From a virus (taxonomy: Duplodnaviria > Caudoviricetes): DNA of 64,000 nucleotides. The position numbers and the translations under genes were made by a program. The notes under the pieces were generated by a model that was given only the letters and a program-made list of their open reading frames with translations, had not been told where the DNA came from and made no database searches. The stretch is from the IMG/VR virus record IMGVR_UViG_3300036824_000037, positions 32,001 to 96,000 of that record; one strand, 5' to 3'. Positions 3,363 to 37,300 of the stretch are shown here, in pieces (the stretch's first letter is position 1; every line of letters starts with the position of its first letter).

Positions 3363-4664
3363 GGTGTGGCTCCGTCCGGTTGTGCGGCCCAGTGGCCGGT
3401 GGCCTCGCGTGCGCGGTCGAGGTATTCGGCGACGGTCTGCAAGCGCCCGTCGGCGTCGCGCAGCATGTCCGCGATCCGTTCGCCGTTCTCCCAGGACTGG
3501 GCGGCGGTCCCCGCCCAGACGTCCAGTGCGCTGCCGAGGCGCCCCAGGACGGTGTCGGTCTGGGTTAGGTCGTTGAGGGTGCGCAGGGTGTAGGCGAGGG
3601 CGGCGGGGTGCTGGGGTTCGGTGCTCATAGGTCCGCTCCGATCTGCGCGTCGTACTGCGCGGCTTCGAGATCGCGCTGTCGCTGCCACGCTGCGGCGAAC
3701 TGGGCGCGCAGGGCGGCCTGGTCGACGGGCTCGGTGTAGAGCTGGTGGGTCCACAGGCCGTCGATCAGGCGGGAGTCCACGGCGTAGGGCGGGTCGAAGA
3801 TCGGGGCGAGCCAGTGGGCGACGAACAGTGCGGCGCCCTGGTCGCTGCCGGTGGCGAACGGGAAGTCGAGCGCGTTCATCGGGCGCCTGCTGTCGCGGTC
3901 AGGCGCGGGTGGGCGCGCTGGATGTGGTGGGTCTCGGCCTTCGCCGCGGCGGTCTCGGAGGCGTAGCCGGCGCCGCACGAGCGCGGGCCGGTGCAGCCGG
4001 GCACCGTGCAGTGAAACGCGTGGCTCGGCGAGCCGGGCTCGTGGATCGTCATCGGGTGCTCCCGTCGATGTGTCCGCCGACGTAGGAGCAGGACAGGGCG
4101 CGCATCATCCGCGCGAGGTTGCCAGGCGTGGCCGGTACGCCGTAGCCGGCGAGCAGCGCGCGTGCGGTGTCGCGGTGGCCGGCGACCACGTCCGGTGCGG
4201 ACGCTGCGGCCAGTGCGACGTCGCGGGCCGTGGCGAATGCGGGCGGGGTCCAGCCGACGGGTTCGCCGGTGGGGTCCAGGTCGTCGAGGACCAGGGGGCG
4301 GCAGGCGGCCATCAGACGGCGCTCCCGTCCCGGGCGATGTAGGCGGTCAGCCACGCCACGTCGCCCCAGATGAGGTCGTGGTCGGCGTCGCCGTTGTTGG
4401 TGTACCGGTCGCGGTGCCACGCGGAGCGCAGGTGCCACGCTGCGTCCCGGCCGCGCGTGAAGGTCAGGCCGAAAGCCTTGCTGTAGGGGCTGTCCGGGAT
4501 GCGTCCGGGCTCGGTCGCGGCCGGGCGTCCGAGGACGAGGCGGATGCGCCCGGCCTGGTGTGCGTCGGCCTCGACGGTCCAGGCTGCGGCGGTGGCGATG
4601 AGTGTGGGGACGCCGTCGGGCAGGTCCCCCGCGAGTGCCTTTTCGCAGGCGGGGCAGTGGGCGA

Positions 4665-12743: not shown

Positions 12744-13901
12744 GCCGTCAACGTATCCGCCACGTCTCGCGTCCGAGAGTGGTTGGCCGAAACCTGTCCC
12801 GCCGAAGCATGGAAGGGGACACCATGACCACCGAAACCACCGCGCGCGCCCGCCGCAGCCGCCGGCCATCCAACGCGGACCGCTCGCACCGCCTCGACGA
12901 CCTCACCGCGTGGCTCACCGCCCGCAACAGCGTGGCACCCACGCAGAACCAGGAGACCCGCTCATGCTGATGCTCGAAGGCGCCCTGATCGCGCTCGGCG
13001 CGTTCCTGCTCGGCCGCGTACTGCCCGGCCGACGCCGCACACCCAAACCCGCGCCGCCACCCCGGCCGATCTGCGACTGCCGGCACAGCATCAGCTTCCA
13101 CACCGACGGAACCGGCGGCTGCGCGTGGGTGGGCGAGAAGTTCTACAAGTCCGGCTGCGGCGCGATCACCCCGAAGTGCACCTGCCTGCGGTACGTCGGC
13201 CCGACCCCGCTGCCGGAGTACTTCGCCAACGAGATCAGCGCGACATGACCGCCCTGCCGCCGGAGATCACCCGCAACCTCGACGCGCACCGCACCGCGCT
13301 CGCGTTCATCCGCGCCATGCTCACCGACCGGATCGACGACGCACTCGAGCTGTGGTTCACCTGCCCCGAAGACCAGCGCATCGACATCGGCTTCGCCCTC
13401 GCCACCCAAGCCGCCGCATACCTGAGCGCCCGATGCGGCGGAGGGGAAGCCGGCGGCCGGATGGCGCTCCGCTACGCCGACGAGACGCTGCTGGCCATGG
13501 CGCAGGAGGACGGCGGATGAGCGCCCCGGCTGGCTTCGAGCCTTATCGAACAACACCCCGGCCCGCTGCCGGGCCATCCCCGCTAGCAAGGAGGCACCAC
13601 CCATGACCCTGACCGCCCTCGACGCCCTAGACACTGACCTGCTCGACGCCCTCGCGGCTGTGGAGCGGGCACGCCGACGACTCGAACAGGCGCGGTCGGC
13701 CGGCGGATCCACCGTTCGCGGATCCACCGCCGGCGTACCCGCGCTCGCCGCAGCGTCGGACCCGAACCGCGCGCAGCGTCCGGACGAGTGCGTCATCCGG
13801 GGCGTCCGCTACCGCCTCGTGCCCAACGCGCACGAGGTGATCGAGGCGGCACTGGCCCGGAAGACGGCCGCACGTGGTTGAGGTCGCCCCGCGCCAAAGA
13901 G

Positions 13902-14446
13902 CGGCCAGGCCGCGCCTCACCCCGCCAGGGCGCGTCGCGCCAAACCGGGCCGGGCCATGCCACGCCTGCCATACCTGGCCCGTCCTCGCCGCGACGCGCC
14001 CAGCCAGGCCGGACCCCGCCTGCCGTGCCATGCCTGGCGATACCTCGCCTAGCCACGCCTGCCACACCAAGTCGGAACCCGACCCACCTGGCCAATCCGG
14101 GACTGGACGCACCATGACGTGCCGGAACGCGCCTGCCAGTACCTGCCAAGCCATACCGAGCCGAGCCCGGACCTGCCGTGCCTGCCGCGCCATGCCGTGC
14201 CGGGCTCTGCCGGGACGGGACACGCCGGGACTCGCGATGCCCTACCTGCCCCACCGAGCCGGGCCTAGCCTATCCGCGCCCTGCCTGGACGAGTCCGACC
14301 GAACCGGGCCTGCCGGGACCCGCCAAGCCTCGCCGTGCCTCAACGCGCCTATCCGTGCCGAGCCCGAACTCGCCCCGCCTGCCGGGCCATGCCAAGCCAA
14401 ACCGCGCCAAAACCACCGTGCCCAACCACGCCAGGACGTGCCTGCC
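13902..14446 (-). ncRNA. Guide-like array: 9 units of GGCA + 7-14 GGY-NN pentamers (VIPR-like)
   Basis: Manual parse of - strand. Units start at 14446, 14383, 14314, 14250, 14186, 14137, 14063, 14024, 13970; lengths 63, 69, 64, 64, 49, 74, 39, 54, 69. 73 of 101 pentamers start with exact GGY; NN is variable. Begins 4 nt after the accessory gene stop. Confidence 0.85.
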
Positions 14447-14450
14447 GCGC

Positions 14451-14888
14451 TCACGCAGCGGCGCTATCCGCCCCGCCGACGTCCTGACGCACCATCGCCA
14501 CGAACTCCTCGAACTCCCTGTAGCGGCGATACAGCGCCTTCCACTCCCGCTCCATCGCCCGCAACACCAACTCGCTGCGAAAAGGATCCTCCCGCACCTC
14601 CTCGGCCGGGTCGTACGCGTACCCGTCCTTCGACGGCACCGACACGAACGCCCGCACCGACTTGGCCGGCCCCGACTCGTCGGCCTCCCGGTACGCGATC
14701 CGCACACTGCGGATCAACTCGCGCGCCTGGTGCAGCCGGTACGCCTCGCCCGCGGCCGAGTCGTCCCACTCGAACCGCGAGTGCAGCGGATGCGACGGCT
14801 CGCGCGCGGCGGTCACCACGTGCCTGTCTGCGAGCGTTCCGTACTGTGAACGGATCGCCAGCAGTTCCGAACGCAGGTCGGTGCTCAC
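14451..14888 (-). CDS. Conserved accessory protein of the RAMP-array locus
   Basis: HPLHSRFEWDDSAAGEAYRLHQARELIRSV motif; GTG start overlaps the RAMP stop (GTGA). Confidence 0.8.
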   Translation of the reverse strand: MSTDLRSELLAIRSQYGTLADRHVVTAAREPSHPLHSRFEWDDSAAGEAYRLHQARELIRSVRIAYREADESGPAKSVRAFVSVPSKDGYAYDPAEEVREDPFRSELVLRAMEREWKALYRRYREFEEFVAMVRQDVGGADSAAA

Positions 14889-15520
14889 GCAGCCACCAGC
14901 TCGCGGAGTCCGCGCACTACCTCGACCGGGCGGTTCGGGTCCAGGACATAGGTGCCGAAGTCGCCGTCCTTCTCCGGACGCCACTCGCCAACCCCGACGC
15001 CACCCCCACCGGCCTCGATCAGCGAGAGCACCGATTCCTGGGTGAGCGCCGAGGTGACGTACGTGACCTCCAGCGTCGCCGACCAGGGCAGGAACTGCGG
15101 CCGGTAGCGCAGGTCCGAGCCGCTGCGGTTGACCGTGACCACGTCCTCGCGCATCACCGGCTCGCCGACGATCCGCACGAGCCCTCGGCCATCGGAGCCG
15201 ATCTCGCCACGGAAGAACATGTACTGCTTGAGCGCGGTCATCGTGACGCCGCTGAAGAGGCGCGCACCGCTGACGGTGGCCGCCTTGAACGCGAGGGCGG
15301 GAAAGCCGTATCCGCCGTCGGCGAGCCGGTAGAACGCGGCCTCGTACTCGCCCTGCGGGTCCTTGTTCTGCTTGGGCGCCTTGCGGCCCTGCATGTTGTC
15401 CAGCATCTGGCGCTTGGCCTTCTCGCTGAACTTGTGCACGATCAGCGGCGCGGTCCCGGCGATGGGGACGTGGATCGTCTCGGTGCCGATCCGGCTGATG
15501 TTGATCGTGGCATCGGTCAT
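14885..15520 (-). CDS. Cas7/RAMP-like RNA-binding protein (Vipr-like), 211 aa
   Basis: RAMP-like elements: first strand IHVPIAGTAPLIVH, GFPALAFKAA, C-terminal Gly-rich loop GGGGVGVGEWRPEKDGDFG; GGAGA RBS; no other cas genes nearby. Confidence 0.75.
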   Translation of the reverse strand: MTDATINISRIGTETIHVPIAGTAPLIVHKFSEKAKRQMLDNMQGRKAPKQNKDPQGEYEAAFYRLADGGYGFPALAFKAATVSGARLFSGVTMTALKQYMFFRGEIGSDGRGLVRIVGEPVMREDVVTVNRSGSDLRYRPQFLPWSATLEVTYVTSALTQESVLSLIEAGGGGVGVGEWRPEKDGDFGTYVLDPNRPVEVVRGLRELVAA

Positions 15521-15589
15521 GGCTGTCTCCAGAGAGAGATCAAGGGAATGGTGAGTTTTCAGCCACTCCGCGCCACGAACCGTGCGAGC

Positions 15590-15620
15590 AGTATAGGAGA
15601 TGCAATGCGAAGATATGCAA
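15590..15620 (-). promoter_or_regulatory. Putative promoter of the RAMP-accessory-array operon
   Basis: TTGCAT-19 nt-TATACT on - strand, 70 nt upstream of the ATG; spacer longer than usual. Confidence 0.55.
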
Positions 15621-31111: not shown

Positions 31112-32782
31112 TCAGCCGCGCACGAACCCCGTCACCAGTTGCGGCAGCGACGCGTCGAACCCCGCGACCGCGAGCACCCCCGGGTCGCGCGGGTCGCCGA
31201 TCGAATGCCCGGCCGCCGTCATCGACGCGACCACCAGCCGCGCCGCCGGATTGACCGCCGCGCGGTACGCCGCGAGCTCCTGCACCGGATGCGAACCGCC
31301 CTGCCACGTCTCGTTGTCCGTGAGCGCCAGCACCCCGTCCACCGCGAGCCCCTGCCGGCACGCCCACGAGAACGGCAGCGCGAGGTTCGTGCCGCCGCCC
31401 GACGGACGCCACGACGCGATCTCCCGCAGGTTCGTGCGCGCAGTGACCCGCGAGGCGTGCACGGAGGTGTCCACGTCGATGACGTGCGCGTTGCCGCGCT
31501 CGATCCGCGCCATGATGACCGCCATCGCGCACCCGACCTCGTACGGCGACCCGATCGGCGAACCGCCGACCGTGACCGCCGCGCCCCAGGCGCCGGACAT
31601 GGATCCGCTGGAGTCCACCGCGACCAGCAGGCGCCGGCCGGAGGGCTGCACGTGCCCGAAGGAGAGCTCGTACGCCTCCTCCAGTGCGTCGCTGATCGCC
31701 GGGACCGGCGCCCACGTCTGTACGGGCACCTTCGGGTTGGGCTGCGAGCGCCCGGAGCCGTAGACCCGCAGCGCGAGGAACACGTCCAGCGGGTGGATGC
31801 GCCCGGCCGCGAGCGCCGACTGGTCGGTCAGCCGGGCTGCGGCGCGCCGGGTCGCGTCGCCCATGGGCTTCAGCGCCCCGATCCGGGTCATCCGCGCCAG
31901 GTTGCGGATCAGCGCGGTCATCCCGACCGTGTCGACCAGCGCCTCCCACACCTGCGGCGAGGTGAGCACGGCGTCGGGCAGGAACTCCCACGGCACGCCG
32001 CGCTCTGTGACGACCCGCACCGCGTCCTTCGGCGTGGTGACGGCCTTCGCGGTCAGGAACGCGTCCACGCTCGGCAGTACCTCCCGTGCGGTCTCGTCGG
32101 TGACGTTGCCCGCGATCCACCCCAGCAGCACCCGCCGCTGCTCGCTCTCGGCCTTCGGGTGAGCGATGCGCAGCAGGTCGCGCAGGCTGAAGGGCTCCCC
32201 GGTGGGGGTCTTGCGGGCCATGGCCTTGCACGCCTGGAACGCGATCCGGTCCGGGGCGTCGCCCAGGAACAGGTCAGCGAACGCGCCACGGGTGAGGCGT
32301 CCGATCTTCGGGGAGGATCCTGCGCCGGAGGGCTTGCCGTGGGCGTTCTTCCAGTAGCCGAAGAACACGGCCCGGTGGAAGGTGGTGCGTGCGACCTTCG
32401 GCAGCGCCGCGCGGGCGGCGCGGCGGGTGTCCAGGTCGCCGCGGGTGATCGCGGCGGCGAGCAGGAACAGCGCGGGGTGGTTCTTGGGTGCACGCGGCGG
32501 ATGTCCGGCGGAGACGTCCACGGCCAGGGCGACGGCGCGGGGCCCGTCCTGCGCGATGGCGTCGTACACGACCTGGACGTTGTCGAGGGTGAGCTTCTGC
32601 TCGCCGACGTAGTACGTTCCGCCCGATGTGCCGATGATCAAGAAATCCTCGAGGCGGGTGAAGGTGTCCTTGGCGTAGGTGTAGCCGCCGGCGTTGTTCT
32701 GTACCTGGCCGGTGGCGCCGGGGATGGGCTGGGTCTGCGGGGTGCGCAGCGTGGTGACGGCCGCGAGGGGGTCACGGGACAC
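31112..32782 (-). CDS. rsr: Ro60/Rsr TROVE-vWA RNA-binding protein
   Basis: [37 protein letters not shown], vWA MIDAS DSSGSM, GGTN, LTDNETW, GFDAS. Confidence 0.92.
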
Positions 32783-34238: not shown

Positions 34239-37200
34239 CCGTGATGCGGTGCTCGTGACGCTGACCGCCGAAATCCCGACGCGGCCCGGCCCGGCGCCGG
34301 TGGCGCCGGCAGGGCCGTACGCGCGCCTACTCCGGAGTCAAGGCGTCAGCGCCGGCGAACTGGAGCGGATCAAGGCGGGGCTACTCGCGCTCGCCGGACC
34401 GGAGGCCACCGCATGACCGAGTTTACGATCCAACTCGTCGGCGACCGGGGCGTGCTGCTCGTGGAGGGCCGCGTGAGCCCCCTGTTTGGCGAGCTGGTCG
34501 GCTGCAAGATCGAACGCATCATGCCGCTGGACTTCACACGCCCCGACCCGCCCCCGTCCCACATCAGTGCGTTGCCCAAGCCCGTCGTGGAGGTGACGCT
34601 GCGCCTGCCGCTCGGCGGCAACGACCGGCTCACGCTGGTGCGCGACACCAGCATCGAGACGCTGAACGGGCCGACCGAATCGGAGATCCGCTCGTCGGGG
34701 CCGGGTGCGGTGGCGCTGCTGGACCGGTGGCTCGCCCAGCATGAGGACGAGCCGGGTGGGGCGCTGATCGCGAAGGCGCGGGAACTGCTCACCGGGAACG
34801 CCGATTGGAGGCGGCAACCGTGAGCGGGCACACGTCCTGGGCCGCTTACAGAGCGTGCCGAGAGCGTGCCATGTGGGACGCATCGACCCCGCAGCAGCGC
34901 CGTGAGCGCGCGACATGCAGGCGCCGCGACAGGGGCACCCTCGACCGCGCCCTGTGGGCCGGGCAGGTGCGCGACAAGCTCACCCAAGCCTTGGGCGCGG
35001 CCAGCCGGGCGAGCCGTTCGACTGGCGGGTATGGCCACCCACCGACGAACAGGAGATCGCGGACGCTGCGGCGCGCGAGTTCGGGTTCAAACCGTTCAGG
35101 GCGCCGGGGCGTTACGATCCGGCGCTTGACGGCGTCACCACCGCGGCGGAACGAGAGGCCGCACACCAGGCGCTGATGGACGGGCTGGCCGAGTTGAGGT
35201 TCTCTAGCGCGTACGGCCAGGCGTGGGCCGCGCCAGCCTACGTCGGCCAGTTACGGCGCGACCGGAACGGGGTGTTCGGCGAGTTCGACCCGACGCCCCC
35301 GCGCATCGCTGAACCTGAGCGCCGCCGTCACCGCTGCGACGAGCGCTGCACCTGCCCGGCGGACGGCAAGCCGATGTTCTACGCCCCGTCGCAGGCCGTG
35401 CACGCCTGCGTCGACCCTGACTGCCGCTATGCGCGGCCGGAAGACCTGCCGTGAGCGACCAGGTGACCGCCTACCAGGGCGCACCGTCCACCCCGATGCC
35501 CGCCCTGCCCGCGACGGCGTTCCTGCACGTCTGGTTGGACATCGCCCTGAACGACCCGGTGGGGCGGCCGGTGCTCTGCCCGCGCTGCCGCGCCGTGGCC
35601 GCGTCGGTGGAGGTCGGGCGCGGCGAGCCGGCCTGGTTCCGGATCGGGCCGTGCGGGTGCCTGTTCGAGATCGTTGGGGGCGGCTGATGCGCTTCCGAAC
35701 CTGGGTGCGTTTCCCCGACGGCGCGATCCGCCACGCCCGCTACGACTCGGTCACCGACACCGTGACCCGGTTCCTGTGCGCCGACGCCGACGAGGCCCTG
35801 CATCTCGGCGGGGCGATGGACGACGACTACGACCCGGCGTGGGACGGACTCGGCATGCCGGTGACGCTCGCGACCGATTACGACGACACGCACTGGCCTG
35901 GGACCGCGTACCGGGAGCCGGGCTCGGACTGGTGGTGGCTGACCTCCGGCACCGAGCCGGGCGACGACGTTATCCGCGAGGGGCTGCCGGGGTGGGCGCG
36001 CGGATGAGCGAGGGGAACGCGGCGGCGTGACCCGCGCCCCGGTGGACGAGCGGCACGCCTGCCCGGGTCTGGTGTGGATCGACTCCGACGCCCACCCGTG
36101 CGGACTGTGGTGGCGCCACGACGGCGAGCATGTGCCGTTCGTGGGGGATTACCTGCCGCCGCCGCTCCTGCACCCGCTCGACGCGCGACTGGTCCCGATC
36201 CGGGCGCGCGAGACGGGGACTGCGTGCCCGAACGGGCATGGCGGCCGGTGGTTCGAGCCGTTCCCGGGGCGGCGGTGGTGGATCGAGCCGAGCTACCAGG
36301 TGGAGGCGACGACAGCGTTGCGGCACTTCGTGGACGGCCACTGGCTGGCGCCGCAGACCGAGCTCGAGTGGCGGTTCGAACCATGTGGGTGCACGTTCCG
36401 GGAGATTGTCACAGCGCCCGATGTCGAATTGAACTGAACAACTCGACGCGGTGTTGCGGACACTGCAACGCTGGTCAGGCGGCGCGCCGGGCTTGGCGGA
36501 TCACGCCCTCGACGGCGAGATCACGCGCGAACGCCGCGGCGTCGCGCAGCAGCCGGGGTATCCCACAGGAGCACGGGGTTCCCGCGCCGTCGAACTGGGC
36601 GCAAAGATCGTTATGGATGTTCGTGCTGTCGCTCGAGGCTGCGTCCAGGCGCTCGAGCAGATCCCACTCGGCGTCGGCTTCCGGGACTGTCCCCACGGGC
36701 CATTGTTGTACACCAGTCCGCTGACATGCGCGCCCCGATCACGGAAACCGGGGCGCGCGTGCAGGTCAGTGCTGAGGCGCCTGCCTGTGGCGCATCATGG
36801 CGCACAGCGCGGACCAGGTTGCGCGGGCGGCCTGGTAGATGAGCGCGAACCCGAGCCTCCACGCGGTGCCGACACTGAGGGCGCCCTGCTCCTCGGCGGA
36901 CAGTTTGTCGGGGTGCCAGAGGAACACGGTGGCGCCCTCGCCGGGCTCCGACGCGACACCCACGATCCACTTGCCGCCGCCGGACACGTCGCGCCCGACG
37001 CACACCGTTTCGGAGTGCAGCGCGGGCCTACAGAACGTCGCGTGGGTCATCGCACGGGCCTCAGCAGAGTGAGCACGGGCCGCTCCGGCTCGTCGCCGCG
37101 CCGTTCGGCCGCCTCGGCGGCTTCCCGCCCGAGGGTGATCAGTTCGAACGCGCGGAACAGGTCGGCGAGTTCCTCGCGGGTGACGGTGTCGAGGCGGGCA

Positions 37201-37300
37201 ATGGCGCGGTAGTCGGCGGCGGTCTTGCCCGCGACGTAGCCCTGCCGGTAGGCGACGCTGTTCCACATCAGGTTGTGGACGAGTTTGCGCAGGCGACGGA

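Follow-up and report, generated by a model that had tools for sequence, protein, structure and literature searches.

Can a phage-borne silencing system direct one of its own guides against the promoter from which it is expressed? This question is raised by a locus in a 64,000-nucleotide (nt) stretch of viral DNA (Duplodnaviria; Caudoviricetes), positions 32,001 to 96,000 of the IMG/VR record IMGVR_UViG_3300036824_000037, which we call here the window. The locus is a VIPR system, an already-known kind of system consisting of the vipr gene, the vap gene and a staggered array of guide RNAs (vrRNAs), and the shortest unit of this array, unit 7, partly matches the putative promoter of the vipr-vap-array operon. 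An initial annotation of the DNA proposed that this match serves negative autoregulation. Conservation and covariation in related loci support the proposal, and we consider it fairly likely that this unit acts as a mini-vrRNA, conserved and only partly matching, which represses its own promoter, the repression, its sign and its strength being predictions. Unit 7 would thus probably be a brake built into the VIPR system, as the match is kept in about a dozen related phages, in one of which both of its sides have changed together.

According to the 2026 VIPR preprints (bioRxiv 10.64898/2026.04.26.720920, 10.64898/2026.04.26.720927, 10.64898/2026.10.15.759431), the RAMP protein Vipr polymerises on vrRNAs composed of GGY/NN repeats. 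In each repeat, GGY is buried and the two N bases are left to pair with double-stranded DNA, every third target base being skipped and no protospacer adjacent motif (PAM) being needed. Binding silences transcription on either strand, and promoter-proximal targeting is repressive. Staggered arrays, in which vrRNAs overlap by 1 nt, are described there as well. The characterised systems are those of phage SUSP1 and of a Pseudomonas fulva prophage (type II), with vrRNAs of 9-16 repeats and a 3' pseudoknot tail. VIPR types I-VII, accessory genes vap1-6 and 664 VIPR loci have been published. The gapped guide, Cas7-like protein and promoter silencing that the initial annotation had assumed as its framework are, in effect, this published mechanism.

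The self-match of unit 7 and its fate in related loci

Unit 7 lies on the minus strand at 14025..14063 and carries the pairs GT TA GA AT CA AT AC. Read on that strand, it is composed of GGCA (14063-14060) and seven pentamers (14059-14025), followed by a shared terminal GGCAG (14024-20), and the first five pairs (pentamers 14059-14035) form what proved to be its conserved core. The corresponding gapped site, GT.TA.GA.AT.CA, is found on the plus strand at 15591..15604, so that the strand bound by the guide would be the minus strand, which is the sense, non-template strand of vipr. On the sense strand, the site spans five of the six bases of the putative -10 hexamer TATACT (15595-15590) plus nine bases of the spacer. 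Ten of 14 positions match between the site and unit 7, seven of these ten matched bases being A or T; pairs six and seven mismatch in the window, the promoter having TG and GA where the guide has AT and AC. The main features of the match had been described in the initial annotation, and re-reading of the sequence confirmed them, including the letters and coordinates of unit 7 and of the site, the rank of unit 7 as the smallest unit (of nine in our parse), the one-base gaps between the matching dinucleotides, the coverage of the -10 box and the strand with which the guide would pair.

Is such a match more than a coincidence? When all nine units were compared, at any offset and on either strand, with the 237-bp intergenic region, a run of at least five pairs arose in 17 of 400 order shuffles and in 11 of 400 base shuffles, and on the real contig the five-pair hits of any unit number 42, or 0.077 per 237 bp. 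For the window alone, the match is therefore borderline (family-wise P of about 0.03-0.08), and the caution about a chance partial match voiced in the annotation was apt at this level. When scored over its full length in the published way, the site reaches 0.71, which is below the 0.8 cut-off, and it is one of 16 sites with at least 10 of 14 matches; the VIPR authors retained matches of at least 80% (score 0.8) and reported no self-targets at that level. A 10-bp, A/T-rich code should be nearly unique in a genome with 70% GC. The annotation had raised the frequency of the pattern on the replicon as an issue, and GT.TA.GA.AT.CA was found to be far from common, with a single occurrence when the two strands of the 128.8-kb contig were searched.

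We gathered about 200 loci encoding Vipr relatives and defined as a clade those with the order vipr, vap, then array, preceded by a TA[TC]ACT promoter and a conserved leader. This clade contains 13 distinct promoters and 12 distinct complete arrays (the window, L003, L084, L004-L007, L087 and L316-L319), and its Vipr proteins are 73-91% identical to that of the window where measured. A single short unit with the five-pair core is present in each of the 12 complete arrays, at a variable position in the array and with an altered core in L084/L314. The remaining units differ between loci, and the core is the sole four-pair run common to at least seven arrays. Within the copies of the mini-guide, the GGY letters, which are fixed as a rule, vary (GGC, GGT, GGA, GCT) and so do pairs six and seven, the five core pairs being fixed. 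In every one of these loci, the antisense strand carries the matching gapped site, located 60-71 nt ahead of the start of vipr. As the sixth and seventh pairs match the own promoter in no lineage, it appears from these comparisons that the partial match itself is conserved; in L007 the self-match reaches six pairs. L316 and L317 encode an identical Vipr protein (P0027) and have unequal arrays (3550-4422 vs 3558-3953), with the mini-guide kept in both; this points to a more rapid change of the arrays than of the gene for the protein.

This pattern bears on one alternative, namely that unit 7 is a guide like any other, with all seven pairs matching a gene of a competing element or host absent from the collections, the promoter match being irrelevant. 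Other units do look like ordinary guides, as exemplified by unit 4 with its nine pairs spelling a ThiF/E1-type nucleotide-binding motif. However, unit 7 persists while real guides turn over, and the pairs that differ between lineages are the sixth and seventh rather than the five matching the promoter. Moreover, a seven-pair scan of viral contigs returned at least 116 stretches, which were scattered, AT-rich (median GC 37%) and in keeping with a chance background. We regard this explanation as very improbable.

The promoters themselves show on which positions constancy is maintained. Among 12 diverged promoters, with an identity of 45% over the 30 nt flanking the site upstream, all ten paired positions of the site are invariant and four of the five skipped positions are variable. 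The chance that all four variable positions fall on skipped bases is P = 0.0037, although four of the ten invariant positions are inside the -10 hexamer, which is conserved anyway, and P becomes 0.033 when the hexamer is omitted. Since paired bases are invariant and skipped bases are free in a non-coding promoter, this periodicity provides, at the level of sequence comparison, independent evidence that the one-base-skip rule also holds in a clade distant from the E. coli/Pseudomonas models.

A different explanation would be that unit 7 is a structural or processing element, such as a hairpin or another signal for processing or termination of the array, and that its promoter match is a coincidence, aided by a -10 box conserved for its own reasons. 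The borderline statistics of the window alone are compatible with this idea, and so is a feature of the unit itself. Its fifth repeat (14035-14039, minus strand) reads CGC instead of GGY, is kept in all 12 copies and can pair with the third repeat in a stem of 5 bp, forming a possible hairpin (GGCGA, a 4-nt loop and TCGCC) at 14035..14049 on the minus strand; the stem is predicted in most copies. Nevertheless, pentamers 3-5 would be enough for such a hairpin, whereas pairs 1 and 2 (GT, TA) are just as invariant as the others, and the hairpin leaves unexplained why the promoter is invariant at paired positions and variable at skipped ones. Within the stem itself, no compensatory change was seen in the 12 copies, the sole variation being one G-U in L084, while a change on both sides of guide and promoter, described below, would also be left without an explanation. 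A purely structural role therefore seems improbable to us, if less so than an ordinary guide.

The change in question is found in L084/L314, where the guide reads GT TA GA GT TA and the promoter GT.TA.GA.GT.TA. Pairs four and five have thus changed on both sides, by two substitutions per side, and the match has been retained. Covariation of unit and promoter in homologous loci, which the annotation had named as informative, is hence observed in one lineage, next to self-matching units in all 12 arrays. Judged from the sequences of the related loci, conservation and covariation together raise the match well above chance.

It may also be imagined that unit 7 is a weapon, aimed at the vipr promoter of related phages so as to disarm the VIPR of superinfecting or co-resident relatives, the self-match being a by-product or a secondary effect. 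Some published vrRNAs indeed target other VIPR systems, including vipr itself, and nearly all members of the clade share an identical five-pair site, so rivals would be hit too. Published guides of this kind, however, score lower on self than on their targets, whereas here self and non-self are equal; no additional pairs match any other clade promoter, and no unit of the window reaches 80% against 204 VIPR loci. Furthermore, a weapon that hits its owner should select for escape of the owner's promoter, and what we see in L084/L314 is instead a guide and its own promoter that changed together. We thus find cross-silencing unlikely as the primary role, though it is the least unlikely of the three alternatives, and continue to favour repression of the own promoter.

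Outside the clade, one further locus resembles this arrangement. In L113, whose Vipr is 70% identical, a short 8-pair unit (4590-4638) with one non-GGY repeat, GCC, has first five pairs, TA AC AT GT TG, that match a site at 2131-2144, located 68-81 nt before its own start codon. No relatives of the L113 locus were found in viral contigs, and as an independent example of the same design it is suggestive only. Other five-pair self-hits were noted in L048 (crossing a unit boundary), L010 (in coding sequence), L004 (at +10), L055/L057 (at about -53), L049 and L030; we set them aside, as they are consistent with a null expectation of about 4.6 hits. When more variants of the mini-guide were sought with a pattern scan, the hits were contigs already known and three loci unrelated to them, L321, L326 and L327.

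Identity of the VIPR locus

The first gene of the operon, vipr (14885..15520, minus strand), encodes a 211-amino acid (aa) Cas7-like RAMP protein. A profile built from 36 homologues matched the Protein Data Bank (PDB) entry 36pp_D, 'SUSP1 Vipr protein', with an E value of 2.4e-10 over 179 of 193 positions. The AlphaFold2 (AF2) model has a predicted local distance difference test (pLDDT) score of 84.6, and its best Foldseek matches are Csm3/Cas7 chains (E of about 1e-5). The protein also matches phrog_4652, and a protein search gave 4,246 hits for the family, with several hundred Vipr proteins that are at least 70% identical. The residues that read GGY are aligned with those of SUSP1 (H29, R138/R140 and E179-W180-R181 vs H17, R138 and D177-W178-R179) and are invariant across the 36 Vipr homologues, with a D-to-E replacement at one position relative to SUSP1.

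A 145-aa gene (14451..14888, minus strand), translationally coupled to vipr by a GTGA overlap, follows vipr in nearly all related loci and matches phrog_15946; we consider it the candidate accessory gene vap. Its AF2 model (pLDDT 93.2) is modestly winged-helix-like over residues 1-99 (VIA-align Z of 5-5.9, to forkhead and MarR-type domains). No Foldseek match at E <= 0.001 was obtained for the model, and a Vap profile search of PDB sequences gave nothing credible. The model also displays a C-terminal helical hairpin after the N-terminal winged-helix-like domain, and the protein has a conserved HPLH..FEWD motif.

The array of about 560 bp (13901..14446), downstream of these two minus-strand genes, has GGC every 5 nt on the minus strand, and the phase slips by one base at every GGCAGGC joint (GGCAG|GC, a one-base overlap). 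Parsing by phase yields nine units of 7-14 pentamers each, eight of the nine having lengths of 5n+4. The fixed triplet is looser than GGY, namely G(G/T)Y and occasionally others, so that the units are best written as G(G/T)Y-NN pentamers. Among 82 loci scanned, a GGC-phased array was found on the vipr strand in 47 and on the opposite strand in three, two of which are inverted-orientation loci; the association with vipr, with the array on the vipr strand, was seen in viral, metagenomic and genomic loci alike.

We assign the locus to VIPR because the Vipr profile match, the Cas7/Csm3-like fold, the array grammar and the staggered joints are all as published. The likeness comprises a Cas7-like Vipr with the same GGY-reading residues, a small coupled gene as candidate accessory gene, same-strand GGY/NN guides, staggering of the array by overlaps of one base, one-base-skip reading of double-stranded DNA, predicted promoter silencing and a phage-borne locus. 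The staggered type found in the window differs from the characterised systems in having no 3' pseudoknot. Pfam, PADLOC and Rfam searches gave no match for vipr, vap or the array. A TRAP-like RNA-binding ring, plasmid iterons or a centromere, and a type III toxin-antitoxin RNA had also been considered, and were dropped after the PDB match identified Vipr.

Some observations on other units and loci may be added. Nine consecutive pairs of unit 4 (14187-14250) exactly match the GxGxxG motif VGLGGTGS at 930-965 of L313, a low-GC viral contig, with the skips at wobble positions, which fits the target in an E1-like gene that the initial annotation had assigned to unit 4; a natural high-GC target of this unit was not found. 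In Mycobacterium phage Donkeykong (NC_051648, about 36870-37256; L001 3440-3790), what is annotated as 'gene 48, hypothetical protein' turns out to be a staggered vrRNA array with almost perfect GGCNN repeats. It immediately precedes gene 49, the homologue of vipr, the true start of which is likely the ATG at L001 3305. Gene 48 was also matched by many Cluster F-type mycobacteriophages in a DNA search. Gordonia phage Ecliptus (L002, genes 16-21) has a vipr homologue, gene 19, accompanied by a weak array and two genes for helix-turn-helix proteins; the group is flanked by the genes for the tail assembly chaperone and the tape measure protein and has the look of a mobile cassette within the structural module.

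The promoter and how the brake might act

The putative -10 hexamer of the operon, TATACT (15590..15595, minus strand), has a TA[TC]ACT counterpart in all 13 clade promoters, at a fixed distance before the conserved leader and 54-65 nt ahead of the start codon. In the window, the ATG of vipr (15520) follows the TATACT hexamer at a distance of 70 nt. A putative -35-like element, TTGCAT (15615..15620, minus strand), is separated from TATACT by 19 nt, and most of the 13 promoters have TTGC(A/G) at this position. Just after the -10 hexamer there is a conserved leader palindrome or hairpin (15574..15584, minus strand), nearly invariant across the 13 promoters. In the longer L086 form of the leader stem, an A-T pair is present that is replaced by G-C in L319; the palindrome may fold as a hairpin in the RNA or, alternatively, serve as operator to which a dimeric protein, for instance Vap, binds.

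We propose the following course of events. The genes vipr and vap and the array would be transcribed leftwards from the promoter at about 15590-15620, and Vipr protomers would load on the GGY triplets of unit 7, presenting its variable pairs. The five core pairs, that is, 10 bp over 14 nt, would then bind the non-template strand across the spacer and the -10 hexamer, and the bound filament would exclude RNA polymerase from the promoter of its own operon. Because polymerase would be kept off in this way, more Vipr and more vrRNA would mean that the whole operon is transcribed less, which amounts to negative feedback. The DNA-bound VIPR filament has five subunits per turn, and five is the number seen in the smallest double-stranded DNA intermediate in cryo-electron microscopy, as reported in the 2026 preprints; a five-pair core, corresponding to one turn of the filament and to this intermediate, would for this reason be structurally plausible.

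Why should the match be partial? In our proposal it would be deliberately so, and the non-matching 3' pairs, the CGC repeat and the possible hairpin may all weaken the guide. As a matter of speculation, a weak guide would act only when Vipr is in excess, in the way that CreR RNAs sense spare Cas protein.

Besides the borderline statistics of the window and the overlap of the site with a conserved hexamer, mentioned above, several points weigh against this proposal. Some concern the comparative data: covariation comes from one lineage only, plus the unreplicated L113, and in 25 loci with the array upstream, two self-hits were found vs 0.95 expected, which is no enrichment. Others concern the promoter, which is putative and deduced from conservation alone; a strict sigma-70 consensus scan did not call it, because of its 19-nt spacer. 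The remaining ones concern the guide. Ten paired bases are far fewer than those offered by vrRNAs of 9-16 repeats, and the site is shorter than any published tested target. In type II VIPR, engagement of DNA begins at the 3' end of the vrRNA, which would correspond to the mismatching end here; it was also found for this type that pairing can be completed independently at separate positions. Finally, the CGC repeat is devoid of the first G that Vipr reads, which should make binding of the protein weaker at this repeat, and so loading of the protein on unit 7 may be impaired.

With these points taken into account, we hold it slightly more probable than its negation that the VIPR of this actinophage clade carries a dedicated short feedback guide, which sets the levels of Vipr and vrRNAs by a five-pair match to the promoter of its own operon.

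Relation to known self-regulating guides and meaning for VIPR

What is new here is a feature within a known system, namely a self-guide that is conserved, covarying and only partly matching. We call it new because the word "autoregulation" is absent from the VIPR preprints (text search of 10.64898/2026.04.26.720920, 10.64898/2026.04.26.720927 and 10.64898/2026.10.15.759431) and because their authors report no self-targets at 80% or above. The guides of the characterised VIPR systems aim at other elements, whereas here a unit of 7-8 repeats with a conserved five-pair match to the own promoter stands among ordinary guides. The solo vrRNAs of SUSP1-like phages, which target the vipr coding sequence or rival vrRNA loci with scores of at least 0.8 (bioRxiv 10.64898/2026.10.15.759431), are alike in being directed at a VIPR locus. 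Their match to self is poorer, however, while the target of unit 7 is its own promoter and covaries with it.

Closer parallels come from CRISPR-Cas. CreR and cr-like RNAs repress cas promoters via partial matches in types I-B, I-E and V-A (bioRxiv 10.1101/2023.03.10.532045; 10.1101/2023.03.03.530964). As in CreR, the locus encodes a degenerate mini-guide that is partly complementary to the promoter of the effector, the effector itself would be used for autorepression, and partial matching is a conserved feature of the design. The pairing of CreR, in contrast, is contiguous and involves a PAM, and its partial match avoids cleavage; VIPR as found here has no nuclease, so that a partial match would tune affinity only, and its pairing is gapped, engaging two bases in three.

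Two traits may be taken as typical of guides of the CreR/tracr-L type. One is partial complementarity to the promoter of the own operon, represented here by five of the seven pairs of unit 7 over the spacer and the -10 hexamer. The other is conservation of guide and target together, as seen in 12 of 12 arrays, with a double compensatory change in one lineage. The tracr-L of Streptococcus pyogenes, reportedly (Workman et al., Cell 2021) a natural short guide of Cas9 with an 11-nt match, is said to repress the promoter of its own operon. The likeness to unit 7 is that a short natural guide directs, or in our case would direct, the effector to its own promoter, with repression of the whole operon; the differences are the single-protein class 2 effector, the other RNA architecture and the contiguous pairing. 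Related work is also available (bioRxiv 10.1101/2023.10.22.562561).

If our interpretation is true, ten gapped base pairs suffice for functional binding of VIPR in vivo. VIPR was described in 2026 only, and the minimum match needed for binding is not reported in the VIPR preprints (10.64898/2026.04.26.720920, 10.64898/2026.04.26.720927, 10.64898/2026.10.15.759431). The conserved, covarying five-pair self-match would then show how small a match can be in nature and still be recognised functionally, with a lower bound of 10 bp in 14 nt or one turn of the filament, and such a bound would be relevant to off-target prediction if VIPR is to serve as a programmable silencer. It would also follow that repression of an effector by its own partly matching mini-guide is not an invention of CRISPR, but occurs as well in the lineage proposed to be ancestral to it. 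With a feedback circuit like those of CreR and tracr-L, VIPR and CRISPR-Cas would share a regulatory logic in addition to the RAMP fold.
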